From assembly GCA_030390025.1 (NCBI GenBank), contig CM059431.1, positions 130,760,001-130,824,000 of the forward strand: 64,000 nucleotides of DNA, read 5' to 3'. The position numbers and the translations under genes were made by a program. Of the stretch, positions 4,278-64,000 are shown in pieces. Under the pieces are notes generated by a model. It was given only the letters and a program-made list of their open reading frames with translations. It ran no database searches and was not told where the DNA came from. The DNA is from Squalus acanthias. Lineage: Eukaryota. The first letter of the stretch is position 1; every line of letters begins with the position of its first letter.

Positions 4278-7088
4278 CACTTCAATCCACTTTGAGTGAC
4301 TATCTACAAGTACCAGGAAATAATCATTTGCTTTCTCACAGAAGTCTACATGTACTCTCTGAAAAGGTTTACTTGGCCATGACCAGGGTTGTAGTGGAGT
4401 TTTACGTGGTTTGTTTCTGTAATTTTGGCAAACGCTGCATTTGCTGACAAGTGATTCAAGATCACTGTCCAATCCAGGCCAGTAAACAAAGCTTCTTGCA
4501 ATTTATTTCATACTGACGATCCCTGGATGTTCAGTATGAAGTTCGGCCAGAATTCTATCTCTCGAAGAAGTAGGTACCACCACTCTGTTTCCCCACTTGA
4601 TACAACCTTGCTCACAAGACAATTCAGTCCAACGGTTATGGAATGGTTTCAATTCTGTGTCCATACACTGATCAGTCCATCCATTCAAGGTGTTTTCATA
4701 AACTTTCTTCGGTACTTACTCCTTTTGAGTCTCATCTGCAATCTCAGTTGCATTCACGGGAAAGTCTTTGTCAACTGCACCTAGCGTGAAAATAGAACCT
4801 TCACTTCCAACACGAGTCCTTATGTGGCAATCTGGACAAGGCAGCTGTGATTGTGTTCTGCTTTGAAGTGCGATATTCAATCGTGCAGTCATATTGTAAC
4901 AACAACACTGCCCAACGTCGCATTCTTGTTGCAGCCATTGCAGGGATGGCAGATTTGGGCCCCAATATTGCTAGGAGCGGTTTGTGATCGGTTATCAGGG
5001 TAAACTTTTTGCTGAATCAGGAACTGTTGGAATTTCTTGATTCCAAACACTATGGCGAGTGCTTCCTTTTCAGTCTGCACGTAGTTACTTTCGCTCTTTG
5101 TGAGGGGTCACGATGCGAACGCGATTGGTTTCTCTTGGCCGTCATCCATTACGTGGCTTATGACAGCTCCCACACCGTAGCTAGAAGCATCACATGCTAA
5201 CTTAAGCTCACATTCTATGTCATAGTGCACAAGTAGAGCATCGCTAGAGAGACTTCCCTTACAAGCATCGTAAGCTTCCTATTGCGCTTTTGTCCACTTC
5301 CACTGGACATCCTTCTTGAGGAGATTGTGCAATGGAGCTAACATGGTCGCTAACTCAGGTAAGAAACGTGTGTAGTACTGGACCATTCCAAGGAAAGATC
5401 TTAACTCAGACACATTCTGTGGCTTTGGAGCATTAATTACAGCATCAACCTTTTCCTTAACTAGTTGCAAGCAATTTGCATCAACTTTCAGACCAAGATA
5501 CACAACCTCGGGCTGCACAAAAGCACATTTGCTCCTTTTCAATTTGACGTTGTGGGCAATCAACCTTTGAAGTACTATATCCAACACTTCTAGATTTTCT
5601 TCCTTGCTGCTTGTTGCGATCAGCACATCGTCTTGATTGTATAGCAATTTGGAACTCCTTGCAAAATCTTATCCATCGTAGCCTGGATGATTTTGGGGGA
5701 GGACTTTACACCATACGGTAGCTTGGTGTATGAGTACAGTCCCTTGTGTGTGTTGATAGTGAGATACTTTTGACTCTTTGTCAACATTCAGCTGAGCGTA
5801 AGCGTGCGACAGGTCAAGCTTGGAGAAAACCTTTGACCCAGAGAGTGCTGCGTACAAATCTTGTGATATAGGTAAGGGGTAATACTCATCGTCAACTGCT
5901 TGGTTGATAGTAACTTTGTAGTCACCGCACAAGCGTACAGTTTTGTCTGCTTTGGGCACTACCACAATTGGGGTAGCCCATTCACTTTTGTCAGTTTTAC
6001 TAGCACTCTGTTCTCTCTCAGCTTCGCTAGCTCTTCCTCCACCTGACTTTTCAACGCATAGGGGACCGACTTTGCCTTACAATAGACAGGCTTCGCATTG
6101 GACCTAATGCGGATATGCACATCATACCCAGTGATGCCCTCATAACTGTCTGTGAACATGCATTTGTACCTGTTCAGCATTGTGTCGAGTCACTTTTTTG
6201 AAGCATCTACACTGAAGATGTTTTCCCAGTCTAGTTTTAACTTTCTCAACCAGTCTTTGCCCATGAGGGTTGGCCTGTTGTTGGAGCTCACTACAATAAT
6301 AGGCAGCTTTACTAACTGGCCATTGTGCTGAACTGTACATTCCATTTGTCTACAGGTCTCTAGGATTTCTCTGGAGTAGGTTTTTAACTCTAGCTCTTTG
6401 TAAGTGGTATTTGATTAAACTTACTCTCATATGTGTCCTTACTCATGAAAGAGCAGTCCGCCACCGTGTCGATACACATATCAATATATTGCTTGTTGAT
6501 CAAAAGTTTTCTACAGAAGTCTTTCTCATGACTGCTAGCATTGCCGCTAGTGGCATAGATACTGTAGGTGCCTAGTTCTTCAAGATCAGGTGTGTTCACT
6601 TCAATATTGTAAAATCTTCCCTTTTGTTGTCACTGCTTTGCATTGCCTCTAGGATGGTTCTTACTTCCTGCTTTAGATCTAGCTCTGCAAGCTGTTGAAA
6701 TATGGCCTTGCTTCTGGCAGTGAAAATACTTCGCATTTCTGTATTGGCAGGACTGTGGTGAGTGATTTCTATTACAGTGATAACAATTCACTGAACTGCT
6801 CTCACCGACATGTTTTTGACCCGGTCGCACAGCTTTAGGTTTGGTGGTGGCTTTGTGACTGGAGACCTCAGCTGCACTAGTCACTTGAGTTGGCGGCGCT
6901 CCCCAGCATTCTTAGATGCCATCTCCATAGATAGGGCAATTTTGCATGCTATGTCAAACATTAGGTTCGGAGTATTCAGTAACATGGACTGTGTGTGCTC
7001 ATTCACCATTCCACACACAAACTTATCTCACAACACACGATCCAAAAATGTGCAGAAGTTACAATGCAAAGACAGGTTCTTAAGAGCT

Positions 7089-7936: not shown

Positions 7937-9578
7937 TGTAATATATGTGGGTAGAACAAATGAAGGAGACAGACACAATGAGTTGCTAGTCCAAGTGCTT
8001 GCTTTATTAGGCCAGACGAACTGAGCATGCTCATACTAAACCATGTAGCAGAGGCCCTGGCCATCATTTTCCAATCCTCTCTGGCTTCAGGTGTGGTGCC
8101 GGAGGACTGCTAATGTGGTACCCTTGTTTAAAAAGGGAGAAAAGGATAGACCGATTAATTACAGGCCAGTCAGCCTAACCTCGGTGGTGGGAAAATTATT
8201 GGAAAGAATTCTGAAGGACAGGATAAATCTTCATTTAGAAAGACACGGATCAATCAAGGATAGTCAGCACGGATTTGTTAAGGGAAGGTCATGTCTGACA
8301 AACTTGATTAAATTTTTTGAGGAGGTAACAAGGAGGGTAGATGAGGGTAGTGCGTTTGATGTAGTGTATATGGACTTTCGCAAGGCTTTTGATAAGGTTC
8401 CACATGGCAGACTGGTCACAACGTTAAAAGCCCATGGGATCCAGGGCAAAGTGTCAAGTTGGATTCAAAACTGGATCGGAGGCAGGAAGCAGAGGGTAAT
8501 GGTTGATGGGTGTTTTTGTGACTGGAAGGCTGTTTCCAGTGGGGTTCTGCAGGGCTCAGTACTAGGTCCCTTGCTTTTTGTGGTATATATCAATGATCTA
8601 GACTTGAATATAGGGGGTATGATTAAGAAGTTTACAGATGATACTACGATCGGCTGTGTGGTTGATACTGAAGAAGGAAGCTGTAGACTGCAGGAAGATA
8701 TCAATAAATTGGTCAGGTGGGCAGAACAGTGGCAAATGGAATTCAATCCGGAGAAGTGTGAGGTAATGCATTTGGGGAGGGCTAACAAGGAAAGGGAATA
8801 CACATTAAATGGTAGGACACTGAGTAGCGTAGAGGAACAAAGGGACCTTGGAGTGCATGTCCACAGATCCCTGAAGGTAGCAGGCCAGGTAGATAAGGTG
8901 GTTAAGAAGGCATACGGAATGCTTGCCTTTATTAGCCGTGACATAGAATACAAGAGCAGGGGGGTTATGCTTCAACTGTATAAAACACTAGTTAGGCCTC
9001 AGCTAGAGTACTGCATGCAGTTCTGGTCACCACATTACAGGAAATATGAGATTGCACGAGAGAGGGTACAGAGGAGATTTACAAGGATGTTGCTGAGAGT
9101 AGAGAATCTTAGCTATGAGGAAAGACTGGATAGGCTGGTTTTGTTTTCCTTGGAACAGAGGAGGCTGAGAGGAGACCTTATTGAGGTGTATAAAATTATG
9201 AGGGGCCTAGATAAAGTGGATGGAAAGGACCCATTTCCCTTAGCAGAGGGGTCAAAAATCAGGGGGCACAGATTTCAAGTAATTGGTGGAAGGTTTAGAG
9301 GGGATTTGAGGGGAAATTTCTTCACCCAGAGGGCTGTGGGGGTCTGGAACTCACTGCCTGAAAGGGTGGTAGAGGCAGAAACTCTAACCACATTTAAAAA
9401 GTACATGGGTGTGCACTTGGGATGCTGTAACCTGCAGGGCTACGGACCAAGAGCTGGGAAGTGGGATTAGGCTGGATAGCTCTTTGTTGGCTGGCACGGA
9501 CACGATGGGCCAAAATGGCCTCCTTCCGTGCTGTAACTTTCTATGATTCTATGACAAACCATGTGATAATACCTTACA
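7937..9578 (-). repeat. Gypsy 5' LTR (7937-8046 + 9553-9578), split by a CR1
   Basis: AAACCATGT|GACAAACCATGTGATAATACCTTACA rejoins to match the other LTR once the CR1 is removed. Confidence 0.9.
8047..9552 (+). mobile_element. 5'-truncated CR1 LINE; RT ORF 8091-9470 still open
   Basis: 459-aa ORF with NYRPVSL, QHGF, QGSVLGP, KFTDD; 3' UTR GGGCCAAAATGGCC and tail CTATGATTCTATG. Confidence 0.95.
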
Positions 9579-9930
9579 GTGTGGCCTTGTTCAAATCATT
9601 GCAATCTGGATTAATTTGAGTATCTATCTGGATTTTTCGACCGATAGCTGTAATAATATAAAACTTCTCCTGCTATATTTTATTTATTTAATTTTTAAAC
9701 CATTAAATCTGATGTTTATTTGTTGCATTTAGTTACTATTCTCCACAGATGAATTATCCTAATAACGTATTGGGGGAAAAATTCAATAGCTCCCGTTGCT
9801 TCCGATTCAGGCACCACAGCAACTTTGTGCTGCCTGCTAATTTGCATGATTGCTGCTCGCAGCCAGCGCTAAACACATTGTGGAGTGGCTGCATGCCTCA
9901 GCAGGGGACCCAAGTATATGCAAGGCCAGC

Positions 9931-10020
9931 ACCACTTAAAGCTAGCCTACACTACTTAAAGCTAGCCTGCACCACTTAAAGCTAGCCTACACTACTTAAA
10001 GCTAGCCTGCACCTCTTAAA
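9931..10020 (+). repeat. 20-bp tandem repeat, 4.5 units in alternating A/B form
   Basis: ACCACTTAAAGCTAGCCTAC / ACTACTTAAAGCTAGCCTGC twice, then a partial unit. Confidence 0.95.
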
Positions 10021-10076
10021 GGGGAGGTGCATTCTGGCTGGAGCAGGTGCTGGAACTGTTTGTGGAAGAGAGTCTG

Positions 10077-11380
10077 AGCAGGAAGAAGAGTAAATCATGG
10101 CATAACCGGAGAGAGTGTGCTCCAAGGTTCTCTGATCCTACACTGGAGGCCTTGGTGCAGGAGCGGGAGAGAGGACTTCTATCCACAGGGGGCCAGGAGG
10201 CCCTTCAGGCAAACTCTGCGAAGGCAGTGGAGCAGATAGCTGTGGCGGTCAGTGCCAGGAGTTAAGCCCTGAGGACATGGATGTAGCTGAAGATGATGTA
10301 AGCATGCTCCTCTTGCTTTCCATCTCCCCCCTCACCATAACCCTACCCATGTGCCTTTCTCCTATCAGATACCCAAGAACCGCACACAGGCCAGGCAGTG
10401 GTGGAAGAGCAAGAGGTGGAACAGCAGGAAGACAGTGATGAAGAAGAAACACCATCACTCGCAGCCACCAGCTCAGATACTGACACTGCTCTTACTTTAA
10501 AGCATAGCTTAGAGGCTGGATCCGTACGTGGTGAGACACCGGGCACGAATGGCCTGCAGCCAGGGCAGAATACAAGGGTAGCGCAGGTGCCAGCTCGCCG
10601 TAGGGTGAGATCACACATGGGTTCAGCTGCAGAGGACTCAGATGAGCACTTCAATGGGGTGGACAACAGAAGAAGGCTGATGGGTATGCACAATGAAATG
10701 CTTGGTGCATTAGCAGGCCTGCCAGAAAGCCTGAGTGCAATGTCAAGGAGCATGGAGGAGTCCAGCACCAACTTGGCACAGGGCTTTGATCAGATCTTGG
10801 AGCCCGCATGGAAGTGGTGTCCAACTCCATTAGCACACTTGTGGACCCAACCATGATGCAACGTCTGATGACCGATGTCTCAGCTTCCATTGCAGCACAA
10901 GCAGAAGCCATCCAACGTCTGGGTACTGCCGTGGAAGTTCAGACTGCTCTCATGCAAGATCAGCTTGCTGCCACCCAAGCTCAGACTGCTGCCATCATGG
11001 TTGCAGTTACCAGTGTGGAAAGGGGCTTGCAGGGTGTTACAGCAGTCCAGCAATCAGCCCTCCAACAGATTACTAGCATTGCTGAGGCGCTGCCCCGGGG
11101 GAGTGGCAGTGGCTCCATGGAGCACGAAACTGCTGTCTTCTCTCAGGATGAGCGCTTTCGTCCTCCCACCCCTGCCATTCCACCAGTGCCCTTGCTGTTG
11201 TCTGTCAGCCAGTCAGCCCATGCCGAGATGATGCAGTCTGAAGCCGGGGGCCTTCTCAGCCCAGAGCTGCTTGAGGACATCTTCCAAGGCCATCTGCAGT
11301 CTCCTCCCCTCCCCCGAAAGTCAGCAGCCTTCCACCAGCCATGCTGCAGCCACTGGGGTAGCACTGCGAAGGAGCACTAG
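10077..11380 (+). pseudogene. Harbinger Myb/SANT-like DNA-binding protein remnant
   Basis: RECAPRFSDPTLEALVQE...EQIAVAVSARS, then acidic and coiled-coil-like segments; candidate GT-AG intron 10298-10368; frameshifted. Confidence 0.75.
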
Positions 11381-11639
11381 GACCTGCAAAGGCACATGGA
11401 AGACAGGCACTAAGGAAATGCACAGGGTGATTAGTTGATGTTTATATGTGATATGGCATGGTTTGATTTAGAAATTTGGTTTGGAATGTCTATTTTGTGT
11501 TGGCATTTATTTTTGTATTGTGGCCAAACAGACGCTGTGATAGTCAGTAACAGAAGGGAGGTAAGGATTGTGGGAGTGTTGGTGAATGAAGAAATTGGGT
11601 TTGTATTTACTGGTTATAGAAGTCAGATGAGTCAGTCAC

Positions 11640-12650
11640 AGACAGCTGGCCAGAAAGGGGCTGTCTAGGTTGCCTCCTCCCTTCCTCTTCCTCCTCCTCC
11701 TCCTCCTGCTCCTCAGTTGGTTGCCGTATAACTGGGGGCAAGGGCTGTGCCCACATGATGGTGAGGTTGTGCAGCATGCATCAGACCACCACGAATCTTG
11801 ATACCTGCTCTGCCGAGTACTGCAGGGCTCCTGCAGAGTGGTCTATCACATTCGCATGGCAATATGGCATTCGTTGTATGCTTGCTGCCCACATGTGCGT
11901 GGGTTGCGCACCAGAATAATCAGCTATGTCATCAGCAGATAGCCCTTGTGGCCCAGTAGTCACCTTTGGTTTGCTGTGGTGGCTCAAATGCAGATGGCAC
12001 AGCGGACTGCCACAGAATGAAGGCATCATGACTGCTGCCAGGATAACGGGCATTTACCTGCATGATTCGTTCCCTATGGTCGCACGCCAGCTGGGCGTTG
12101 AGGGAGTTGAATCCCTTTTGGTTGCCATACATCTCAGAGTTTAAATGCAGCGCCCACAAAAAGACATGCATGCAATCAATGGAAGCCTGCAAACCTCGCA
12201 AAGCCGCGTGCTGGTTCCGCCTGCTGCTTTCTGGCCAGAGAGAATGAAATGTATTCAGCTCTCTTCAAATACAGGGCGTCAATCACCTCCCTTATACAAC
12301 AGTGGACAGCAAACTGGGAGATGTTGCAAATATCTCCTGCTCCAGCCTGGAAGGTGCCCGACGCCTAAGAGTTCATGGCCACCATAACCTTCACAGCCAC
12401 TGACAATGCGGTCGGTCCTCGCCCTGCTCTGAGGTTGCAGTTCTGGCTGCAGCAGGTGGCAGATTTCAGTGAGGACGTCCATGGTGAAGCACATATGTCT
12501 GACACACTGTGGATATGGCCTCCTGCTGAGAGCCCTTCTCCCGCTCCTCCTCCTTCCTCTTCCAGCAGCTTATCCTGCTCTGTGTCACTTCTACTCATTC
12601 TTCCTGTCATGCAGCAGGCCAAGGGGAATGCTTGCTGCTGCACCCATGTC
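11640..12650 (-). pseudogene. Harbinger DDE transposase (HARBI1-like) remnant
   Basis: ASIDCMHV, KGFNSLNAQLACD, VNARYPGSSHDAFIL; several frameshifts. Confidence 0.9.
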
Positions 12651-13266: not shown

Positions 13267-13744
13267 CAAAAAGGAAAAAAAAAAGAAAGACTTGCGTTTA
13301 TATAGCGCCTTTCATGACCTCAGGACTTCCCAAAGCGCTTTACAGCTAATTAAGTACTTTTGAAGTGTAGTCACTGTTATAATGTAGGAAACGTGGCAGC
13401 TAATTTGCGCTCAGCAAGCTCCCACAAACAGCCAGTGATAATGACCAGATAATCTGTTATCGTTATGTTGATTGAGGGATAAATATTGCCAGGACACCGG
13501 GGATAACTCCCCGGCTCATCTTCCAAAAAGTGCCATGTGATCTTTTACGTCCACCTGAGAGAGCAGACGGGGCCTCGGTTTAACGCCTCATCCGAAAGAC
13601 GGCACCTCCGACAGTGCAGCACTCCCTCAGCACTGCACTGGGAGTGTCAGCCTAGCTTTATGTGCTCAAGTCTCTGGAGTGGGACTTGAACCCACAACCT
13701 TCCGACTCAGAGGCGAGGGTGCTACCCACTGAGCCACAGCTGAC
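13267..13744 (-). mobile_element. Full-length tRNA-derived Deu-domain SINE (SacSINE1/AmnSINE1-like)
   Basis: Head TGGCTCAGTGG...GGTTCAAGTCCC; core GGAGGTGCCGTCTTTCGGATGAG...CAGGTGGACGTAAAAGATC; L2-like tail; ATAATT at both flanks (13261-13266, 13745-13750). Confidence 0.9.
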
Positions 13745-14428: not shown

Positions 14429-14521
14429 GGCTCACCACCACCTTCTCAAGGGCAACTAGGGATGGGCAATAAATGCTGGCCTTGCCAGCGACACCCACAT
14501 CCCATGAACGAATAAAAAAAA
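14429..14521 (+). mobile_element. 3' end fragment of LINE family B
   Basis: CACCACCACCTTCTCAAGGGCAACTAGGGATGGGCAATAAATGCTGGCC...GAATAAAAAAA, matching the 3' end at 23792-23880. Confidence 0.85.
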
Positions 14522-14983
14522 GTACAAGAAAATACATTCATATTTAATTTGTGTTATAATAGTAACCCCATAGTATTTGCCTGTCGTCCCTAACAAACCC
14601 ACTCCAAACCAAAAATACTCTCTGAGCCCCCTCAAACTGAATTAAAACTAAAACTTTAGAACCATTGTGCCCTTTATTTTAGATATAGCATAATATCAAT
14701 AATGGTTAGTTTGGGGATGACTTGACCTAACACTAGCTGTGAGCCAAATTGATACAGCGCTGCACTGTAAACAAATCCTGGTTCCCCAGTGCCCACTGTT
14801 AAAGGGTCTGTGCTCTGTAAAGTCACTTTTTTTGTGATAATGTCGTTGTGTCACCTCTTGCATGTAATATTATTTCTGATTGTAGTAAAATAACTAGAAA
14901 TGTCCACATTGCAACAAATAGAGTGATTACATAGTGGCGGATTCTTGTCTGGCAGTGAGTAATTTTTGCCCAGAAACAATCAT

Positions 14984-15820: not shown

Positions 15821-16018
15821 TATATTTTTATGGAACCAGTTACAGGTGATATCCCCTTTCAAGATTCTTTGGCCATTGTTCACGGAAAGCATCTAGGTAT
15901 GAGTTACCTTCAAATTTGTTTTGAGTTACAGGGGTTAGTATTTCAGAATAATCTGACATTGGCTCATGGATCTGAAATCACGCATAAGCTGGCTAATATC
16001 CTAAATGAAGTTGATTTT

Positions 16019-17936
16019 AAGAACATAAGAAATAGGAGCAGGAGTAGGCCATTCGGCCCTTCGAGCCTGCTCCGCCATTCAATGAGATCATGGCTGATCT
16101 TCTGCCTCAACTCCATTCACCGGCCCTATCGCCATATCCCTTGATGCCCTTACTAGTCAGAAATCTATCGACTTCTGTTTTGAATATACCCAATGACTGA
16201 GCCTCCACAGCCCTCTGGGGTAGAGAATTCCAAAGATTCACCACCCTGTGTGTGAAGAAATTTCTTCTCATCTCAGTCCTGAATGGCCTACCCTTTATCT
16301 CGAGGCTGTGGCCCCTGGTTCTAGATTCCCCAGCCAAGGGAAACATTCTCCCAGCACCCATCCTATCAAGCCCTGTATTAATTTTGTATGCTTCAATGAG
16401 ATCCCCTCTCATTCTTCTGAATTCAAGAGAATACAGGCCTAGTTTACTCAATCTCTTCTCATACGACAGTCCCGCCATCCCAGGAATCAATCTCGTGAAC
16501 CTTCGTTGCACTCCCTCTATGGCAAGTATATCCTTCCTTAGGTAAGGAGACCAAAATTGTACGCAGTACTCCAGGTGTGGTCTCACCAAGGCCCTATATA
16601 ATTGGAGTAAGACTTCTTTACTCCTGTACTCAAATCCTCTTGTAATGAAGGCCAGCATACCATTTGCCTTCCTAATGGCTTGCTGCACCTGCACATTCAC
16701 TTTCAGTGACTCATGTACAAGGACACCCAGGTCCCTTTGAGCATCTGCATTCCCCAATCTTTCACCATTTAGGAAATACTCTGCCTTTCTGTTTTTTCTA
16801 CCAAAGTGGATAACTTCACATTTATCCACATTATATTCCATCTGCCATGTTCTCGCCCACTCACTGAGCCTGTCGAGATCCCTTTTGAAGCCTCTTCACA
16901 TCCTTTTCGCAACTGACACTGCCACCTAGCTTTGTATCATCAGCAAATTTGGAAATGTTACATTTAGTCCCCTCATCCAAATCATTGATATAGATTGTGA
17001 ATAGCTGGGGCCCAAGCACCGATCCTTGCGGTACCCCACTAGTCACAGCCTGCCATCCTGAAGAAGACCCGTTTATCCCTACTATTTGTTTTCTGTCTGT
17101 TAACCAATTCTCAACCCATACTAGTATATTACCCCCAATTCCATGTGCCCTAATTTTGTTCACCAACCTCTTGTGTGCGACCTTATCGAAGGCCTTCTGA
17201 AAATCCAGATACACCACATCTACCGGTTCCCCTTTGTCTACTCCACTAGTTACATCCTCAAAGAACTCCAATAGGTTTGTCAAACAGGATTTCCATTTCA
17301 TAAATCCATGTTGACTCTGCCCAATCTTACTATTAGTTTCTAAGTGCCCAGTTATTGCATCCTTTATAATAGATTCCAGCATTTTCCCAACTACTGATGT
17401 GAGGCTAACAGGTCTGTAGTTCCCCGTTTTCTCTCTCCCTCCTTTCTTAAATAGCGGGGTTACATTTGCTATCCTCCAATCTGCAGGAACCATTCCAGAA
17501 TCTATAGAATTTTGGAAGATGACAACCAATGCATCCACTATTCCAATGGCCACCTCTTTCAAAACCCTAGGATGTAGGTCATCCGATCCTTGGGATTTAT
17601 CGACTTTTAGTCCCATTAATTTTGCTAGTACTGTTTTTTTACTAATTATAATTTCTTTAAGTTCCTCATTCTCGTCACACCCTTGGTTTTCTCGTATTTC
17701 TGGGAGGTTTTTTGTGTCTTCCTCCTTGATGACTGAAACAAAGTATTTATTTAATTTCTCAGCCATTTCCTCATTCCCCATTATAAATTCTCCCATCTCT
17801 GACTGTAAAGGACCTACATTTACCTTCGCCAGTCTTTTCCTTTTCACATACCTATAGAAGCTTTTACAATCTGTTTTTATATTTTTCGCTAGTTTGTGCT
17901 CATATTCCATTTTCCCTTTCTTTATCAATTTCTTGA
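16019..17936 (-). mobile_element. 5'-truncated CR1 LINE
   Basis: RT ORFs 16861-17928 and 16107-16841 separated by one frameshift; tail TTCTTATGTTCTT. Confidence 0.95.
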
Positions 17937-23093: not shown

Positions 23094-23790
23094 GGGCTGG
23101 ATTTTGTGGGGGGTCAGCAGGACTAATCGGTGGCGGGTTGGGTGGGAAAGTGCTTTTTTTTCCCCAGCAGGTTGGGACCCCGCTGTGAATCTGCCGCCAC
23201 ACGCCTTTACCAAATGTCAGATCTGTCAGCGCTACGCAGACCTGACATGCAGCAGCGGGGGAGGCAATTAAAATCATTAGTGGCTTGTTTACAGCCACTT
23301 CTCAATGGTCTTTTTTCTAGCTTTTTGGATTTGACAGGTCGCCCACTAGTTTCCCGCTGTGCCTCGACCTCATCTGTGAAGCTGAGGCGGGAGGTTTCTG
23401 GTCATTGAATCAGCTGATGAGTTGACAGCTGCAAATGTCAAGTCAAAGCTCCCAGCTGATTGAGATATGTTCCATTAACCACTAGCTTCTCTAAACTGCA
23501 TTTCCACTACAGATTCAGGATGCTGCAAGTCTTTACACAAGTCTCCATCCAGTCTGACCTCATTAACTCTCCCACCATTGACAGATCGCTTCTGTCATCT
23601 CTACTTCACCTGTCATTTATTCCATCAGCATGGGTGTCCTTTATGCTCTCTCACCTTGGTCCACAGAATCCCACCATGATCAGCCCCAACGCCAGCAGCA
23701 CCAGGCACACCAGCAGCCCCAACAGCAACACAAAACTTCTCCGCAATCAACTGATGCTGCACAGGACACAGGGCATCAGCACCCGACCAC
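23094..23790 (+). mobile_element. Nuclease-side part of Harbinger family 2 element, truncated at LINE B
   Basis: Starts GGGCTGGATTTTG; 23540-23790 is clearly homologous to 51480-51737. Confidence 0.8.
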
Positions 23791-23791
23791 A

Positions 23792-26700
23792 TTTTTTTAT
23801 TCGTTTATGGGATGTGGGCATCACTGGCAAGGCCAGCATTTATTGCCCATCCCTAATTGCCCTTGAGAAGGTGGTGGTGAGCCGCCTTCTTGAACCGCTG
23901 CAGTCCGTGTGGTGAAGGTACTCCCACAGTGCTGTTAGGGAGGGAGTTCCAGGATTTTGACCAGGCGATGATGAAGAATCGGCAATATACTTCTAAGTCA
24001 GAATGGTGTGTGACTTGGAGAGGAACTTGGAGGTGGTGGTGTTCCCATGTGCCTGCTGCCCTTGTCCTTCTAGGTGGAAGAGGTCGCGGGTTTGGGAGGT
24101 GCTGCCGAAGAAGCCTTGGCGAGTTGCTGCAGTGCATCTTGTAGATGGTACACTCTGCAGCCACGGTACGCCAGTGGTGGAGGCACTGAATGTTTAAGGT
24201 GGTCAATGGGGTGCCAATCAAGCGGGCTGCTTTGTCCTGTATGGTGTCGAGCTTGTTGAGTGTTGTTGGAGCTGCACTCATCCAAGCAAGTGGAGAGTAT
24301 TTCATCACACTCCTTACTTGTGCCTTGTAGATGGTAGAAAGGCTTTGGAGAGTCAGGAGGTGAGACACTCGCCGCAGAATACCTAGCCTCTGACCTGCTC
24401 TTGTTGCCACAGTATTTATGTGGCTGGTCCAGTTAATTTTCTTGTCAATGGTGACCCCCAGGATGTTGATGGTGGGGGATTCAGCGATGGTAATGCCATT
24501 GAATGTCAAGGGGCGGTGGTTAGACTCTCGCTTGTTGGAGATAGTCATTGCCTGGCACTTCTGTGGCGCAAATGTTACCTGCCACTTATCAGCCCAAGCC
24601 TAAACATCGTCCAGGTCTTGTTGCATGCAGGCATGGACTCCTTCATTATCTGAGGAGTTGTGAATGGCGCTGAACACTGTGCAGTCATCAGCGAACATCC
24701 CCATTTCTGACCTTATGTTGGAGGGAAGGTCATTGATGAAGCAGCTGAAGATAGTTGTGCCTAGGACACTGCCCTGAGGAACTCCTGCAGAGATGTCCTG
24801 GGGCTGTGATGATTGACCTTCAATCACCACAACCATCTTCCTTTGTGCTAGGTATGACTCCAGCCAGTGGAGAGTTTCCCCCCCGATTCCCATTGACTTC
24901 AGTTTTACTAGGGCTCCTTGATGCCACACTCGGTCAAATGCTGCCTTGATGTCAAGGGCAGTCACTCTCACTTCACCTCTGGAATTCAGCTCCTTTGTCC
25001 ATGTTTGGACCAAGGCTGTAATGAGGTTGGGTGCAGAGTCGTCTTGGCCGAATGGGCATCAGTGAGCAGGTTATTGGTGAGTAAGTGCCGCTTGATAGCA
25101 CTGTCAATGACACTTTCCATTACTTTGCTGATGATTGAGAGTAGACTGATGGGGCGGTAATTGGCCAGATTGGATTTTTCCTTCTTTTTGTGGACAGGAC
25201 ATACCTGGGCAGTTTTCTACATTGTCGGATAGATGCCAGTGTTGTAGCTGCACTGGAACAGCTTGGCTAGAGGCATGGCTAGTTCTGGAGCACAAGTCTT
25301 CAGCATGATAGCCGGGATGTTGTCAGGGCCCATAGCCTTTGCTGTATCCAGTGCACTCAGCCGTTTCTTGATATCATGTGGAGTGAATCGAATTGGCTGA
25401 AGACTGGCTTCTGTGATGGTGTGGACCTCAGGAGGAGGCCGATATGGATCATCCACTTGGCACTTCTGGTTGAAGATGGTTGCAAACGCTTCAGCCTTGT
25501 CTTTTGCACTCGCGTGCTGGGCTTCACCATCATTGAGGATGGGGATATTCATGGAGCCTCCTCCTCCTGTTAGTTGTTTAATGGTACACCACCATTCACG
25601 ACTGGATGTGGCAGGACTGCAGAGCTTTGATCTGATCCGTTGATTGTGGGATCGCTTAGCCCTGTCTATAGCATGCTGCTTCCGCTTTTTAGCATGCATG
25701 TAGTACTGTGTTGCAGCTTCCCCAGGTTGGCACCTCATTTTTAGGTATGCCTGGTGCTGCTCCTGGCATGCTCTTCTACACTCCTTATTGAACCATGGTT
25801 GCTCCCCTGGCTTGATGGTAATGTTAGAGGAGGGATATACCAGGCCATGAGGTTACAGATTGTGGTGGAATACAATTCTGCTGCTGCTGATGGCCCACAG
25901 CGCCTCATGGATGCCCAGTTTTGAGCTGCTAGATCTGTTCTGAATCTATCCCATTTAGCACGGTGGTAGTGGCACACAACACGATGGAGGGTATCCTCAG
26001 TGTGAAGACAGGACTTCGTCTCCACAATGACTGTGCGGTGGTTACTGCTACCAATACTGTCATGGACAGATGCATCTGCGACAAGTAGATTGGTGAGGAT
26101 GAGGTCAAGTAGGTTTTTCCCTCGTGTTAGTTTTCTCACCACCTGTCACAGAATCACAGAATCCCCACAATGCAGATGGAGGCCATTTCGGCCCATCGAG
26201 CTGCACCGACACATATCCCACCCTATCCCCGTAACCCCACGTATTTAATCCCCCTAATACTAAGGGTCAATTTTATCATAGCCAAAGCAACCTAACCCGC
26301 ACATCTTTGGACTGTGGGAGGAAACCACAGGCCCAGACTGGCAGGTATGTCCTTCAGGACTCAGCCAGCTCGGTCAGTAGTAGTGCTACCGAGCCACTCT
26401 CGGCGATGGACATTGAAATCCCCCACCCAGAATACATTCTGTGCCCTTGCTACTCTCAGTGCTTCTTCCAAGTGGTGTTCAACTTGGCGGAGTACTGTTT
26501 CATCAGCTGAGGGAGGGCGGTAGGTGGTAATTAGCAGGAAGTTTCCTTGCCCATGCTTTATCTGAAGCCATGAGACCTCATGGTGTCCAGAGTCAATGTT
26601 GAGGACTCCTAGGGCCACTCCTTCCCGACTGTATAGCCACCCCTGGTGGGTCTGTCCTGCTGGTGGGACAGGACATACCCAGGGATGGTGATGGAGGAGT

Positions 26701-27212
26701 TGGGGATATTGGCTGAAAGGTATGATTCTGTGAGTATGACTATGTCAGGCTGTTGCTTGACTAGTCTGTGGGACAGCTCTCCCAATTTTGGCACAAGTCC
26801 CCAGATGTTGGTGAGGAGGACTTTGCAGGGTTGATTGGGCTGGGCGTGTCCGTAGCCGGTGCCGAGTGGTCCGTCCGGTTTCTTTCTTATTATTATTTTG
26901 TTTCATAGCAGTTTTTTACAACTGTGTGTTGCTAGGCCATTTCAGAGGGCAGTTAAGAGTCAACCACATTGCTGTGGGTCAGGAGTCACATATAGGCCAG
27001 ACTAGGTAAGGACGGCAGATTTCCTTCCCTAAAGGACATTAGGGAACCAGATGGGTTTTTACGACAATCCGATAGTTTTATGGTTACCATTACTGATAGC
27101 TTTTTATTCCAGATTTATTTAATTAACTGAATTTAAACTCGCCAGCTGCCATGGTGGGATTTGAACTCACGTCTCCGGATCATTAGTTCAGGCACATTAC
27201 CACTACGCTATC
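23792..27212 (-). mobile_element. LINE family B (APE-RT, CR1/L2-like group, exact clade unresolved), apparently full length
   Basis: [61 protein letters not shown]-terminal HHHLLKGN*; short A tail; frameshifts. Confidence 0.9.
26147..26326 (-). mobile_element. HE1-like V-SINE 3' fragment nested in LINE B
   Basis: Minus strand GGTTTCCTCCCACAGTCCAAAGATGTGCGGGTTAGGTTG (recalled HE1 body) plus CR1-type tail GGGCCGAAATGGCC...TTCTGTGATTCTGTG. Confidence 0.8.
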
Positions 27213-27270
27213 ATTCAGTGAAATTTGAACTACCATCAGTCATTATCACATTGCTGTTTGTGTGTCCTGG

Positions 27271-27598
27271 GGGCAGCCAATTTGCACACAATAAGGTCCC
27301 ACAAACAGCAATGTGATAATGACTAGATAGTCTGTTTTTGTTATGTTGGTTGAGGGATAAATATTTGCCAGGACACTGGGGATAACTCTCCTACTCCTCT
27401 TCGAAATAGTGCACCTGAGAGGGCAGACAGAGGCTCGGTTTAACGTCTCATCTGAAAGACGGCACCTCCGACAGTACAGCACTCCCTCAACACTGCACTG
27501 GAGTGTCAGCCTAGCTTTATGTGCTCAAGTCTCTGGAGTGGGACTATGAACCCACAACCTTCTGACTCAGAGGCGAGTGTGCTACCCACTGAGCCACA
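27271..27598 (-). mobile_element. Deu-domain SINE, 3'-truncated
   Basis: Homologous to 13395-13740, with an internal deletion. Confidence 0.9.
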
Positions 27599-29814: not shown

Positions 29815-30162
29815 GTTGCATATAGTCATGTAATCGTTAGTGGATTAACAACCCAAATGTGAATTTAAATCTTACCGTGACAAGTTTTGAAATTGAATTC
29901 AATAAATCTGGTAATTTGTGGGCTAGTGCCAAGTAAAAATTGCCATTAACATTGCCAGATTTTTGTAAAAATCTAATTGGTTCATTAATGTACTTAAGGG
30001 AAGGGAACCTGCCACCCCTATCTGGTCTGGTCTACATATGGCCCAGTCTCACCCAATGTGGTTGACTCTTATTGCCCTCTTAGCAAGCCACTGAGTTGTA
30101 GAAATTGTCATGAAGCAAGAAGAATACTGATCAGCACCTTACATACCAAGAACAAATAAAAA
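29815..30162 (+). mobile_element. Degraded SINE sharing the head of LINE B and probably its tail
   Basis: Aligns to the reverse complement of 26915-27210 (AATAAATCTGG, TGGTTC..TAATGT, AGGGAAGG, CAATGTGGTTGACTCTTA); ends ACATACCAAGAACAAATAAAAA. Confidence 0.75.
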
Positions 30163-30745: not shown

Positions 30746-31196
30746 GGCTCAGTGGGTAGTACTCTCAACTCTGAGTCAGAAGGTTGTCGATTAAGTCCCA
30801 CTCCAGAGATTTGAGCACAAAATCTAAGCTGACAGTTCAGTGCAGTGCTGATGGAGTATTGGACTGTCGGAGGTGCCGTCGTTCGGATGAGACATTAAGA
30901 CATCTGCCTCCTCAGCTGGACGTAAAAGATCCCATGGCACTATTTTGAAGAAGAGTAGGGGAGTTCTCCCCAGTGCTCTGGCCAATATTTATCCCTCAAT
31001 CAATATCACTAAATAAGATTATCTAGTCATTATCACATTGCTGTTTGTGGGACTTTACTGTGTGCAAATTGGCTGCCCCGATTCCTATATTACAATAGTG
31101 CGTACATTTCAAAAGTATCACATTGGCTGTAAAGTGCTTTGGGACGTCCTGAGGTTGTGAAAGGTGCTATATAAATGCAAGTTCTTTCTTTTCTCT
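30746..31196 (+). mobile_element. Deu-domain SINE
   Basis: GGCTCAGTGGGTAG head through GCTATATAAATGCAAG tail. Confidence 0.9.
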
Positions 31197-31494: not shown

Positions 31495-31600
31495 AGCCAA
31501 TGAGATACTTTTGAAATGTAGTCACTATTGTAATGTAGGAATTGGCACAGCCAATTTGCGCACAGTAAGGACCCACAAACAGCAATGTGATAATGACTGA
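31495..31600 (-). mobile_element. Deu-SINE internal fragment
   Basis: Matches ~13344-13445. Confidence 0.75.
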
Positions 31601-32004
31601 TGGTAGCTTAAATTTCACTGTTTTTCATCTGCATCATGGACGTTCCAACCTCATCAAGGGTGGGTGAACATGCCATGTTGGCAACTGTACGATGTAGTAT
31701 GTAGTTGAGGGCCTCATCCCTGATGCTTAATGTTCTCTTGAGTAACTTGTTAAAATGCTCACATCCTATTGCAGGATGTTGCCATCTCAACAGTTCCAAT
31801 GTACCTTGAGCTGTTTCCCATTTTCAAAGTGTTGGAAAAGTTCATGGGTTCCTTTGATCTGCAAATCCATAGATCTCATTTGTTTTCCTGTCCCAACATT
31901 CATTCTGAATGCATTGTAAGTTTGTATCCTCTGACGCAAATCATAGAAATGTGCTGTCTTGCCAATAGAATGCTCATCAACCAACCATTTGTTTAAGACT
32001 CTTA

Positions 32005-33728: not shown

Positions 33729-34157
33729 TTTGCCTCTGAGTCAGAAGGTTGTGGGTTCAAGTCCCACTCCAGGACTTGAGCACATAATCCAGGCTGACAC
33801 TACAGTGCAGTACTGAGGGAGTGCTGCACTGTTGGAGGTACTGCCTTTCAGATGAGACGTTAAACTGAGGCCCCTCTTGGCCTCTCAGGTGAACGTAAAA
33901 GATCCCATGGCACTGCTCGACGAAGAGCTGGGGAGTCCTCTTGGCATCCCGGCCAATATTTATCCTTCAACCAACACCACTAAAACAGTTTAATTGATCA
34001 TCTCATTGCTGTTTGTGGGACCTTGCTGTGTGCAAATTGGCTGCTGCGTTTCCCTACATTACAACAGTGCCCACATCTCAAAAGTAATTCATTAGATGTG
34101 AAGCACTTTGGGATGCCCTGAGGTCATGAAAGGCACTATAGAAATGCAATATAGTCT
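33729..34157 (+). mobile_element. Deu-domain SINE followed by a CT-rich simple repeat (to ~34262)
   Basis: B-box GGTTCAAGTCCC, Deu core and tail. Confidence 0.9.
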
Positions 34158-38777: not shown

Positions 38778-40212
38778 AAGTGTTTCCTAATTTCACTCCT
38801 GAAAGGTCTGGCTCTAATTTTTAGACTATGCCCCCTAGTGCTAGAATTCCCAGCCAGCAGAAATAATTTCTCTTTATCTACCCTATCTGTTCCCCTTAAT
38901 ATCCTGAAAACTTTGATTAGATCACCCCTTAACCTTCTAAATTCTAGGGAATACAACCCTAGTTTGTGTAATCTCTCCGTGTAACTTAACCCTTGAAGTC
39001 CGGGTATCATTCTGGTAAACCTACGCTGCACTTCCTCCAAGGCCAATATACCCTTCTAAGGTGTGGTGCCCAGAACTGTTCACAGTACTCCAGGTGTGGT
39101 CTAACCAGGGCTTTGTACAGCTGCAGCATAACTTCTGCCCCCTTGTGCTTTAGTTCTCTAGATATAAATGTCAGCATTCTATTAACCTTTTTGATTATTT
39201 TCTGTACCTGTTCATGACATTTTAATGATCTATGTACCTGAACCTCCAAGTCTCTTTGGACATCCACTGTTTTTAGCTTTTTACCATTTAGAAAGAATCC
39301 TGTTCTATCTTTTTTAGGTCCAAAGTGGATGACCTCATATTTGCTTACATTGAAATCCATTTGCCACAGTTTTGCCCATTCACGTAATCTATCAATATCC
39401 CCATGTAATTTTATGCTTTCATCTACACTGCCACCTATCTTTGAGTCATCGGCAAATTTGGATATATGACTTTCTATGCCATCATCTAAGTCATTAATAA
39501 ATATTGTGAATAGTTGAGGCCCCAACACAGATCCCTGCGGGACACCACTAGTCACATCCTGCCAATTTGAGTACCTACCCATTATCGCTACTCTCTGTCT
39601 CCTGCCACTCCGCCAATTTTCTAACCAGGTCAATAATTTGCCTTCAACTCTGTGGGCTTCTACCTTAGATAACACTCTCTTATGTGGGACTTTATCAAAT
39701 GCCTTCTGGAAGTCCATGTAAATAACATCCATAGACAGTCCCCTGTCAACTACTTTAGTCATCTCATCAAAAAATGCAATCAGGTTTGTCAGGCATGACC
39801 TACCTTTTACAAATCCATGCTGGCTCTCTCTGATCAACTGAAAATTTTTGAAGTGTTAGGGCATCTGCAATGTGCTCACCTACTTCCTTTAAAATCCTGG
39901 GATGGAAACCATCTGGTCCTGGGGATTTGTCACTCTTTAGTGCCATTATTTTCTTTATTAATTTTATTTTACCTACGTTAATTTTATTGAGTTCGTGTCC
40001 CCGATTCAATAGTAGTTTTTTTGGGATTTCTGGCATGCTATCCTCTTCTTCTACTGTAAATACTGACACAAAGTAATTATTCAACATGTCCGCCATTTCC
40101 CCATTGTCATTGACAATATCACCACTTTCAGTTTTTAAGGGGCCAACATCGCTCCTGACCACCCTCTTTTTCATAATGTAATTGTAAAAATTCTTCGTAT
40201 TGATTTTGATGT

Positions 40213-40776: not shown

Positions 40777-42222
40777 TTTTTTAAAATTCATTTATGGGAT
40801 GTGGGCATCGCTGGCAAGGCCAGCATTTATTGCCCATCCCTAATTACCCTTGAGAAGGTGGTGGTGAGCCGCTTTCTTGAACCGCTGCAGTCTGTGTGGT
40901 GAAGGTACTCCCACAGTGCTGTTAGGTAGGGAGTTCCAGGAATTGGACCCAGCGACGATGAAGGATCGGCGATATACTTCTAAGTCAGGATGGTGTGTGA
41001 CTTGGAGGGGAACTTGGAGGTGGTGGTGTTCCCATGCGCCTGCTGCCTTTCTCCTTCTAGCTGGAAGAGGTCACGGGTTTGGGAGGTGCTGCCGAAGAAG
41101 CCTTGGCGAGTTGCTGCAGTGCATCTTGTAGATGGTACACACTGCATCCACGGTACGCCGGTGGTGGAGGGAGTGAATGTTTAAGGTGGTGGATGGGGAG
41201 TCCAATCAAGCAGGCTGCTTTGTCCTGGATGTTGTCGAGCTTCTTGACTGTTGTTGGAGCTGCACTCATCCAGGCAAGTGGAGAGTATTCCATCACACTC
41301 CTTACTTGTGCCTTGCAGATGGTGGAAAAGTTTTGGGGAGTCAGCAGGTGAGACACTCACCGTGGAATGCCCAGCCTCTGACCTGCTCTTGTTGCCACAG
41401 TATTTATGTGGCTGGTCCAGTTAAGTTTCTGGTCAATGGTGACCCCCAGGATGTTGATGGTGGGGGATTTGGCGATAGTAATGCCGTTGAATGTCAAGGG
41501 GCGATGGTTAGACTCTCGCTTGTTGGAGATAGTCATTGCCTGGCACCTCTGTGGCGCGAATGTTACCTGCCACTTATCAGCCCAAGCCTGAATGTCGTCC
41601 AGGTGATGTTGCATGCGGGCATGGACTGCTTCATTATCTGAGAGTTGTGATTGGCACTGAACACTGTGCACTCATCAGTGAGCATTCCCATTTCTGACCT
41701 TATGTTGGAGGGAAGGTCATTGATGAAGCAGCTGAAGATGATTGGGCCTAGGACACTGCCCTGCGGAACTCCTGCAGCGATGTCCTGGGGCTGTGATGAT
41801 TGACCTTAAACCACCACAACCATCTTCCTTTGTGCTAGGTATGACTCCAGCCAGTGGAGAGTTTTCCCTCCGATTCCCATTGACTTCAGTTTTACTAGGG
41901 CTCCTTGATGCCACACTTGGTCAAATGCTGCCTTGATGTCAAGGGCAGTCACTCTCACCTCACCTCTGGAATTCAGCTCCTTTACCCATGTTTGGACCAA
42001 GGCTGTAATGAGGTCAGAGCTGAGTGTTCTTGGCGGAACCCAAACTGAGCATCAGTGAGTAGGTTATTGGTGAGTAAGTGCCGCTTGACAACATTGTCAA
42101 TGACACCTTCCATCACTTTGCTGATGATTGAGAGTAGACTGATGGGACGGTAATTGGCCGGATTGGATTTGTCCAGTTTTTTGTGGACAGGACATACCTG
42201 GGCAGTTTTCTACATTGTCGGA
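40777..42222 (-). mobile_element. 5'-truncated LINE family B copy nested in CR1
   Basis: Closely matches 23792-25230. Confidence 0.92.
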
Positions 42223-44235
42223 TGTTTTGTGACCCTTTGCTGTTCTTCGTATCTTTCCCATTCGTCAGGATCTATGCTATTTTTTGCATTTTTGTATGCC
42301 CTTTCCTTTAGTTTTATGCTGTCCCTTACCTCTTTAGTTCTCCATGGCTGTTTTTTTTTGGCAAGTAAAGCTCTTGCCCCTCAGAGGAATAAACTGATTC
42401 TGTATCATGTTAAATTCTTTTTTAAACATCTCCCACTGATGTTCTGTCATTTTACCCATTAACAGATTTGCCCAATTTACTTCGGACAATCTCTGCCTCA
42501 TCCTATTGAAGTCGGCCTTACCTAAATCTAGAATCTTAGTAGCTGTTTCACGTTTCTCCCTTTTAAACGCTACTTTGAACTCGATCATTTTATGATCGCT
42601 ATTGGATACATGTTCACGCACAGTAACTAAATCTGGCTCATTACTCATTACTAAATCTAATATGGCTTGCCCCCTTGTTGCCTCTAGGACATATTGTTGC
42701 AGAAAACTATCCCGAACACACTCAAGAAATTCACTACCTTTCTGGCAGGTGCTAGTCTGCTTTTCCCAATCAATATGAAAGTTAAAATCCCCCATTAAAA
42801 CCACTCTGCCTTTACTACACGCTTGTCTAATCTCTGCATTTATACAATCTAGCATTTGAGAGCTACTAACAGGGTGCCTATACACAACTCCCACCACAGT
42901 CTTAGATCCTTTCCTATTTCTTAATTCAACCCATAAGGTCTCCACTGACTGCTTACCTCTCTTTAAATCCTCTCTTATAATTGAAGTGATTTCATCCCTA
43001 ATCACTAAGGCTACTCCTCCCCTCTGCCATTTTCCCTATCTGTCCTGTAGACCTTATAACCTGGTATATTTATTTCGCAGTCCTGACTGTTCTGCAGCCA
43101 TGTCTCAGTAATTGCTACCATATCATACCCTCCAATTTGAATTCGTGCCTGCAGTTCATACAATTTATTCCTTATACTCCGTGTGTTTGTATAATGAAAG
43201 CTTATTTGGGCCACAGCTCTGTCCTTCAGCTCTGTTGCTTTATTCACATGATTCTTATTTCTCTTTCCTGGTTTAATCGCTTTACATCTTTTAGTTTTCC
43301 CTTTACCTGTAGCGCCTAAAGTACAATTTCTGACTGCTACTTTACTCTCTTCCCTTTCGTTTGTTTTTGAACAACTATTTGTACTAGTTGTATTGCAATT
43401 TTTCCCTTAGCCCCCCCCCCCCCATTTACTAGTTTAAAGTCCTTGTGACCGCCCTATTTATCCTTTCCGCTAGGACCCTGGTCCCAGACCAGGTCAGGTC
43501 GAGCCCATTCCAACGGGACAGTTCCTTCCTGTCCCAATACCGGTCCACCCCAGTCCAACACCGGCATCTCCGCATCATGACCAATACCCATGAAATGGAA
43601 CCCCTCTTTCCCATACCACTCCTTTAGCCACGTGTTTACTTCCCTGATCAGCTTATCTCTACGCCAATTTGCACGTGGCTCAGGTAATAATCCAGAGATT
43701 ATAACGCTTGAGGTATTATTGTTTAATTTAGCTCCTAGTTCCTGGTACTCCCCAAACAGGACCTCTTGCCTACTCTTCCCTATGTTGTTGGTCCCAACAT
43801 TGACCACAACGACTGGGTTCTCCCCCTCCCTCTCCAATATCCTTTCAAGCCAGTTCGAGATGTCCCTCACCCTGGCACCAGGTAGGCAACATACCATGTG
43901 GGACTCTCGATCTTGCTTACAAAGGATGCTATCTGTCCCCCTAATTATAGAATCCCCTACAACTAGCACATTACGCTTCCTCTCCTCCTCCTCCTGCCCC
44001 CTTAGGACAGCCTCCTGCTCCAAGGTGCCATGGTCCGCATTCTGGCTGTTCTTCTGACAGTCTTTATCCTTATCTTCACAGGTAGCAAGTACATTGTACC
44101 TGTTGGATAGGATCAGTTTCTGTGGATCCTCGTTCCCTTTTTTACCTGGGTTCCCCTTACTCTGCACACTATCGATCACACCAAACCCATTCTGATCCTG
44201 CACCTCTCTATGAGATGTGACTGAAGTCTGGAGCA

Positions 44236-45055: not shown

Positions 45056-45342
45056 CCACCTCCTCACTGCTGCTGCCGCTCAGGTCCGCACTGTCCCCAT
45101 CTCTGCTGTTTTATATATTGCCACCTCCTCACTGCTGCTGCCGCTCAGGTCCGCACTGTCCCCATCTCTGCTGTTTTATATATTGCCACCTCCTCACTGC
45201 TGCTGCCGCTCAGGTCCGCACTGTCCCCATCTCTGCTGTTTTATATATTGCCACCTCCTCACTGCTGCTGCCGCTCAGGTCCGCACTGTCCCCATCTCTG
45301 CTGTTTTATATATTGCCACCTCCTCACTGCTGCTGCCACTCA
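45056..45342 (-). repeat. 65-bp perfect tandem repeat, 4.4 units
   Basis: Units start at 45056, 45121, 45186, 45251 and 45316 (partial); the four full units are identical. Confidence 0.97.
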
Positions 45343-57842: not shown

Positions 57843-58030
57843 TGAATCCTCAAAGGAATTTCTATCCTCACTACTTTGAAAGGAAAGTATTGGCAGAAAA
57901 GTTGCAAACATGACAGACTTCCCAGCTAAACCAATGTGTTCTGCCTGTGTTAATGCATGGACAAGAATGTCGCAAAATATAATTGCAAGTTGGGGGAAAA
58001 AACATTTTTAACTGCAACACAAATAATAAT

Positions 58031-62880: not shown

Positions 62881-63756
62881 TCTTTGTTTTGTTTATTAAA
62901 TCAGTTGCTTAGCTTGATGACTTAATTTGAAATTGTAGGGTAAATTTTTCACTCCTAAAGCAGAGCCTTGCTCACCCAGAAATCACAGGATATCACACAC
63001 AGCCCATGATTTCCATGGCTACCCATGTGTGATTCCCCGATATGCTTTGCTGTAGGTGTGGCCCTTACCAGATGCATGCAAATGTATGTACTCTCATACA
63101 TAATAAGAACATAAAAAGCATTGACTGAGAAAAGACCAAGGCCATTCTTTCCACAAACCATCTATCACCTGATTTAACAGGAATTCTGCTCAACCCATTT
63201 AACCTCCGAAGGAAAGGATCTGCAAAGTTGTTCTCTCCCTTTCAAAGATAAATTGAGCAAAACTGCTGGATACATATCTCATCTTGCATTACTTACCACT
63301 GGTTGTCTACTCTGGTGTGACATTTCCAAAGTCCCAGCAGTTCAAGAATCATCCTGTTCGACACTGCATTCAATCATCAATATATATACCAATCCTTACT
63401 ACATGCTGAGAACCACTTCTTATGTTCTCAGTTTTACCAATTGAACAACAAATGTTACCTGACCATGGTAAGCACACAGAAGGGGAACATTCCATTACAC
63501 AAGTATGTGGCACAACGTGTTCATGTCATTAAATTGAATATCAGAGAATCCAAACCAAAAATATCTATACCAACATTGAGATTTATAGATAAGGATAGAA
63601 AATCGACTTGGATTTTCACAATTTGCTCATATTTTATTCATGTGACAAATACTTACCAAATATAGATTTTTACATAAGTCCGAACAGAATTCAAGCACAA
63701 CAGAAAAGGATGATAATTACATCAAGATGGTGGCCACAGCTATAGCACACTATCAA

Positions 63757-64000
63757 TCAAAGGAAGATGGTTGTGGTAGTTGAAGGTCAATCATCACAGC
63801 CACAGGACATCGCTGCAGGAGTTCCTCAGGGCAATGTCCTAGGCCCAACCATCTTTAGCTGCTTCATCAATGACCTTCCCTCCAACATAAGGTCAGAAAT
63901 GGGGATGTTCGCTGATGACTGCACAGTGTTCAGTGACATTCATAACTCCTCAGATAATGAAGCAGTCCATGCCCGCATGCAACATGACCTGGACGACATT
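63757..64000 (+). mobile_element. LINE family B RT fragment, cut by the window end
   Basis: Reverse complement of ~24605-24845. Confidence 0.9.

Follow-up and report, generated by a model that had tools for sequence, protein, structure and literature searches.

Zenon LINEs of elasmobranchs are described in PMC13343379, whose supplement holds ten Zenon consensuses, seven from elasmobranchs (five species codes) and three from hagfish and coelacanth. The elasmobranch elements (SquAca_Zenon-1/2/3, CarCar_Zenon-1, RhiTyp_Zenon-1, ScyCan_Zenon-1 and HypSab_Zenon-1) are about 3.3 kb long and have a single APE-RT ORF, an A tail and no ORF1. The absence of an ORF1, which a preliminary description of the locus studied here had taken as unusual, is a published hallmark of these elements, as all Zenon and Rex1 LINEs and many L2 are without it (PMC13343379). 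By the textbook split LINEs are coding and transcribed by Pol II and SINEs are non-coding and transcribed by Pol III; a coding Pol III unit of 3.3 kb would, if true, break this division.

In the window (the whole stretch of 64,000 nt of Squalus acanthias DNA that was analysed) we found a near full-length, decayed elasmobranch Zenon LINE at 27216-23792 on the minus strand, with its 5' end at about 27216. Its parts are collected in Table 1 together with the other copies and the related features of the window.

Table 1. Features of the Zenon element and of its surroundings in the window.
Feature	Position	Strand	Evidence or remark
tRNA-like head	27157..27216	-	boxes and Rfam tRNA 22.5 bits; same head in 7/7 elasmobranch Zenon consensuses
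5' body	26930..27156	-	kept from sharks to a ray; contains AATAAA twice and several ATG triplets ahead of the ORF
A-rich linker, divergent in the window copy	26884..26929	-	666 loose ends at 26929 in X13; depth drop at 26900
Start of the single ORF with APE endonuclease	26328..26883	-	profile match and ATG in most other copies
182-nt insert, a SINE 3' part that arrived later and splits the APE region; presumably HE1/V-SINE-like by name	26146..26327	-	joints 26120/26145 to 26328 in X1 and X13
Remaining ORF, encoding the reverse transcriptase and interrupted by stops and frameshifts	23853..26145	-	profile match, protein tiling
3' end: stem-loop 23853-23809, AATAAA 23801-23796, A7 tail 23798-23792	23792..23853	-	
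First T4 run 3' of the tail, candidate Pol III stop in the flank	23732..23735	-	
Second copy, 5'-truncated, 92% identical	40777..42223	-	sits at an A run inside another LINE
Third piece, from the RT region, cut by the window edge	63752..64000	+	
3'-tail-only piece	14429..14523	+	
Older decayed head, body and linker piece without ORF	29830..30110	+	77% over the body
Harbinger/PIF-like DNA transposon remnant	9781-12264		DDE_Tnp_4, E 3e-10; second-longest T4-free stretch of the window

The ORF of the element gave profile matches to an APE endonuclease (PF14529, E 3e-6) and a reverse transcriptase (PF00078, E 3e-20), and 26809-23865 is tiled by one full APE-RT protein (P0003). The codons of the APE N-terminus LLTNIWGL begin at 26818 (-), 392 nt past the A box of the head, and the frame ends at 23853. 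The longest stop-free frame between the head and the ORF has 42 codons, so no ORF1 fits, and both the short distance (put at about 390 nt) and the lack of room for an ORF1 noted in the preliminary description proved correct. Three in-frame stops, at least three frameshifts and the insert in the APE region damage the window copy, which is dead and not autonomous itself. Ten ATG triplets precede its ORF and two AATAAA signals lie less than 110 nt from its 5' end. The start codon is better seen in other copies, since at 26883 most of them have ATG, the letter of the window copy being differed from in 224,696 of 230,292 depth in run X1 and in 16,321 of 16,516 in run X13. The fold of the 5' region (head and body) was no better than shuffles (z -0.05 and 0.66), which gives no indication of an IRES. 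For the 3' stem-loop z was -1.99 (window copy) and -2.26 (second copy); an equally good fold came from 5 of 200 shuffles. A poly-A tail of the Zenon type is present, as A7 in the window copy and as an A-rich end in the second copy.

No target-site duplication was found around the window copy. Its 3' flank is part of another repeat (23524-23793, with copies at 51461-51739, 47628-47933 and 52145-52450), and the flanks on the two sides are mismatched. By eye, the copy of this repeat at 51-52.5 kb resembles the side of a Harbinger element that carries the Myb-like gene. The 5' flank (27216-27268) is a 53-nt inverted copy, 94% identical, of 31568-31620, which lies 4.3 kb away, and there is a hairpin at 27238-27324. 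The inverted copy and the mismatched 3' flank suggest a rearrangement or a templated patch at the insertion. A second tRNA-headed SINE family, separate from the head of the element and presumably Deu-SINE/SacSINE1-like by name, is found just upstream (27599-27272, minus strand) and again at 13281-13739, 30746-31192 and 33732-34149. A tandem array of nearly perfect repeats, each about 65 nt long, also lies in the window (45056-45342).

The head was reported earlier as a minus-strand pair of boxes, and both are real: an A-box-like TAGCGTAGTGG at 27210-27200 and a B-box-like AGTTCAAATCC at 27167-27157. tRNA-derived SINEs (SINE2) are marked by an internal A box and B box at the 5' end, and the element has both; with 3.2 kb and an APE-RT it is not short and non-coding as a SINE2 is. 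Taken alone the boxes are weak and near chance level. The B-box motif at two mismatches occurs eight times in the window against 6.5 expected by chance, and the Rfam tRNA model gives the head 22.5 bits (E 0.068), below the cut-off of 29 bits. ARAGORN recognised no tRNA in the window or in any of 12 relative loci, but as it misses the real head its silence carries no weight. What makes the boxes convincing is the family, because the same head stands in the elasmobranch Zenon consensuses. Compared by eye with the closest consensus, the window copy is about 21 nt shorter between its boxes, the missing part resembling an anticodon-arm hairpin, and 527 loose ends fall at 27193 in X13. In the consensuses the stretch between the boxes contains a 5-bp stem with a 7-nt loop and then a second hairpin, which may resemble a tRNA-Ser with a long extra arm. 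The B box departs from GGTTCGA in the window copy and in the SquAca consensuses. The boxes are about 52 nt apart in most elasmobranch Zenon consensuses, the usual spacing being given as 30-40 nt (PMC7279448).

The consensuses were compared by eye, unaligned, over their first 400 nt. Over this length all seven elasmobranch Zenon consensuses share one opening, from A box and B box to body and linker, and start 5-10 nt before the A box; the head is absent from all three of the hagfish and coelacanth. An ATG stands at the place of 26883 in six of the seven, SquAca_Zenon-3 being gapped there. SquAca_Zenon-1 is the consensus closest to the window copy, and over these 400 nt the two are nearly identical by eye. 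The tRNA-like head is thus supported as an integral and conserved 5' end of the elasmobranch Zenon family. Of the proposal that the locus is an autonomous SINE-headed LINE, the headed family stands and the autonomy of this particular copy does not. The head forms the shared 5' end in all seven consensuses, and target-site duplications outside it are wanting at the window copy. The Meta-domain of MetaSINEs was considered as an identity for the body and rejected, BivaMeta-SINE1 and BivaMD-SINE1 being unlike it by eye.

The Zenon stretch is partly present in 20 of 24 listed runs, with at least half of its words in 14, from at least five organisms; the family occurs in at least six. Contigs of four runs (X1, X13, X23 and X24) were matched to the stretch at 80% likeness. 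All 30 bins are covered by contigs in both X1 and X13, with a summed contig depth (which is not a copy number) in X1 and X13, respectively, of 360-637k and 310-367k for the APE bins, 434k and 55k for the linker bin, 1227k and 1652k for the body bin and 879k and 596k for the head bin. Because the depth drops to 16k (X1) and 0.4k (X13) at 26900, where the linker of the window copy diverges, these contigs alone do not prove the junction. X23 is sparse (197 reads, none on 26330-26809 or on the last bin) and in X24 coverage is confined to the SINE insert (2 of 30 bins). Searching with the first 97 residues of the ORF returned 150 proteins. Two of these (P0015 and P0019) align to the body DNA and to the APE start, and four (P0016, P0058, P0165 and P0171) begin, by eye, with the translated end of the body. 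The proteins that read from the body into the APE are mostly whale-shark gene models and may be spliced, and so they support the junction weakly. Intact ORFs are rare (0/2313, 1/1419, 3/612, 1/294, 0/59 and 0/396), and ORF-bearing consensuses of 2.9-3.3 kb persist in five species at more than 84% identity. No copies were found in viral contigs and prokaryote genomes, where one 14-mer query gave chance-level matches only.

A tree of the reverse transcriptase (35 rows, three short rows dropped, and containing no labelled Zenon references) places the Zenon copies in a clade of 20 rows (97/99) that is separate from the other LINEs of the window, of which six rows, presumably CR1, form a clade of their own. 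At the next node the sister of the Zenon copies is L003 with P0001-P0004, at a support of only 81/91. The element has neither an esterase ORF1 nor a grouping with elements that have one, by which canonical vertebrate CR1 is recognised. L003 (541-3555) is an intact single-ORF APE-RT element on a metagenome contig, has no ORF1-sized frame and is the closest relative with flanks. No A box was found in the 744 nt upstream of its ORF, in its 5' region of about 300 nt or in a scan of 11 relatives, whose 5' ends may be truncated. As L003, the nearest relative with a flank, is without an A box, the head appears to have been gained in the elasmobranch line.

Pol III stops strongly at runs of four or more T (T4) and moderately at TCTTT (PMC9599045), and a 3.3-kb stretch has to be free of both to serve Pol III as a template. 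In the element no T4 run occurs in the 3239 nt of the sense strand and 20 occur on the antisense strand. Nine other LINE stretches of the window have 37 T4 runs in 8873 nt, from which 13.5 are expected for the element (Poisson 1.4e-6), and each of 16 relatives has 2-17, the count taking 16 of the 20 metagenome relatives and leaving out four with matches below 1 kb. The fragments used as controls are other APE-RT LINEs of the window (CR1-like), at 2918-4288, 8067-9552, 16018-17931, 38785-39867, 42385-43020, 49920-50854, 52771-55112, 56697-57874 and 61553-62826. On neither strand does the window have a longer T4-free stretch than 27635-23735 (3900 nt), which spans exactly the element and the upstream SINE. 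The headless Harbinger-like stretch 12162-9781 (-) is free of T4 for 2381 nt, with 6.2 runs expected, and therefore long T4-free stretches arise in other ways too. The expectation for the element was 4.8 from its own base composition (P 0.008), 5.9 on recoding its protein (P 0.001) and 2.2 under a synonymous shuffle at fixed codon usage (p 0.07). The ratio of observed to expected TT is 0.71 against 0.89-1.28 in all 25 controls and TTT runs stand at 0.39 of expectation against 1.02-1.34. This deficit is specific to TT, pyrimidine tracts and runs of C, G or A being unaffected; TCTTT is absent from the element and near-terminators are rare.

At always-synonymous NNT/NNC sites the share of T falls from 0.46 to 0.31, 0.18 and 0/5 as the resulting run grows from one to four. 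With CpG and TpA contexts removed, T is used at 13 of 67 NNY sites before T versus 53 of 151 before C (p 0.025), and the same test gave p>0.24 in all four control sets; L002 and L003 together showed a mild synonymous trend (p 0.03) before those contexts were removed. By eye, the seven headed consensuses have no TTTT over their first 400 nt, and all three headless ones do. The second copy contains a single internal T4 over 1434 nt. It carries TTTT at 40786-40783 (-), directly before the A tail, which is the layout of a T-plus terminator, although in one copy this may be decay. The window copy does not have the T-plus SINE layout of AATAAA followed by an internal terminator, as it has AATAAA and no T4 or TCTTT. 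These statistics come from one family in one window, whose copies are not independent samples.

A structural link between LINEs and SINEs had been proposed from the head, and it is borne out by short forms, seen in contigs of two organisms, that join the body of the element to its tail. Among the joints listed, six of the 15 best supported link 26929-26937 to 23863-23894, each of these being found in 4-12 contigs of X1 and 9-23 of X13, with two reads in X23. The 3' joint positions among those listed are 23863, 23867, 23883, 23888, 23894, 23903, 23931 and 23948. Some short forms carry linker letters of the LINE, and the 5' breakpoints are imprecise as the linker of the window copy diverges. The depth of the body is 2-5 times that of the APE in X1 and X13. 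No listed contig spans from head to tail; the depth of the head, which exceeds that of the APE, suggests that the short forms carry it, and they would then be about 360-450 nt long. Joined 5' and 3' ends of one LINE, as these forms have in X1, X13 and the two reads of X23, are characteristic of a SIDE of the Persaeus type. Because there are several breakpoints, repeated deletion is favoured over a single ancestral SINE, and we regard it as reasonably likely that the short forms are deletion products of the headed LINE.

Considering the headed family and the coding strand free of T4 at this locus, we lean, if not by much, towards the full 3.3-kb RNA of elasmobranch Zenon being made by Pol III. 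TFIIIC would bind the internal boxes, and Pol III would start where the consensuses do, 5-10 nt ahead of the A box. The purged terminators are the visible signature of the next step, in which Pol III would read through the element and stop at the first T run past the A tail, as in Alu. The weakest step is the third, in which the uncapped RNA would have to be translated through internal initiation beyond several upstream ATGs. The APE-RT protein would then bind the 3' stem-loop and carry out target-primed reverse transcription at A/T runs, which is established LINE biology. Finally, internal deletions joining the body to the tail, as at the joints observed, could yield ready-made tRNA SINEs in one step. 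Initiation and read-through by Pol III are probable when the possibility that the protein comes from other transcripts is counted in. The translation of the same uncapped RNA is more tentative, falling somewhat short of an even chance. Equally tentative is the whole picture: sharks and rays may harbour an autonomous coding retrotransposon with a swapped-in tRNA-gene promoter, Pol III terminators purged from a 2.9-kb frame, uncapped translation and SINEs spawned by single deletions.

Four other explanations have to be weighed against this one. The locus itself, with no target-site duplication, flanks that do not match each other and a different SINE just upstream, could be read as a chance neighbour or a one-off chimera, but this is refuted by the head-body-linker-ATG junction shared by the seven elasmobranch consensuses and by independent protein models that span body to APE, and it retains practically no probability. 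It is also conceivable, if rather unlikely, that the order was the reverse, a tRNA SINE made up of head, body and Zenon tail having existed first and a template switch having passed its 5' part on to the LINE, whichever polymerase was used. Template switching is an accepted route of SINE module exchange (PMC4824008, PMC5786205), and the excess depth of the body and the older head and body piece at 29830-30110 agree with such an origin; the many 3' joint positions and the linker letters of the LINE in some short forms are, however, what repeated deletion from a headed LINE predicts.

The head might instead be a fossil, left by an old SINE capture, with an internal Pol II promoter starting at the same place and the low T content due to U-rich decay signals, splicing or an A/C bias. 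LINEs are described as transcribed by Pol II (PMC10886601) and a strand-biased composition is common in them (10.1101/788562); the p of 0.07 under the synonymous shuffle and the other T4-free stretch of the window point the same way. Nevertheless sharks and a ray alike keep the boxes at the extreme 5' end, the shortage concerns TT in particular and is not seen in the nearest relatives that have no head, and AATAAA occurs twice in the 110 nt next to the 5' end. We consider a fossil head improbable. To the same degree we doubt a split of labour, in which Pol III makes the template RNA and the protein is supplied in trans from capped Pol II read-through transcripts of genic copies. This would account for the head and the purge of T runs without uncapped translation, and it suits the 5' region devoid of structure, the many upstream ATGs and the rarity of intact ORFs, as well as the 39% of whale-shark CR1-Zenon sequence given as lying in introns (10.1101/443036). 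Yet without cis preference the ORF should vanish and the short forms win, and ORF-bearing consensuses persist. Pol III transcription of the full coding element is the reading that we carry forward. If true, it would offer a natural case of translation from a Pol III RNA, and tRNA SINEs would arise in one step, head first and deletion afterwards, which is the reverse of the published model.

The family is already catalogued as sequence (SquAca_Zenon-1, CarCar_Zenon-1 and others), where its head goes unremarked. The word tRNA occurs 0 times in the text, searchable supplement and preprint of PMC13343379, and Pol III is likewise unmentioned in the text and searchable supplement. The family and its lack of an ORF1 are known, and the head, the purge of T runs and the short forms go undescribed in that paper. 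Among the open papers that the searches brought up, none describes a coding LINE driven by Pol III.

Among known systems, the Zenon LINEs of Lepidoptera resemble those of sharks in being ORF1-less, in their size of 3.1-3.7 kb and in having short forms made from their own 5' and 3' ends (PMC6740152). Unlike the headed shark Zenon, their SIDE Persaeus is reported as having neither tRNA similarity nor a Pol III promoter. RTE-1_DAn and the elements related to it are also coding LINEs that hold a tRNA-like sequence, an anatomical precedent for shark Zenon, although they belong to a different clade, RTE (PMC5786205). The SINEs CoeSINE4, SINE2_Gav, SINE2-1_EC and Bov-tA, built on bipartite RTE or Vingi LINEs, combine a tRNA head, a LINE 5' part and a LINE 3' tail, as the short forms of shark Zenon are thought to do (PMC5786205). 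In those SINEs the head is described as added after the deletion, the parent LINE being headless, whereas in shark Zenon the coding LINE itself is headed (PMC5786205). The nearest parallel in transcription is the T-minus retrotransposition of the Alu type, which also has no internal terminator, so that transcription by Pol III would run through the A tail and end in the flank (PMC9599045). Alu, however, is short and non-coding, unlike the coding shark Zenon.
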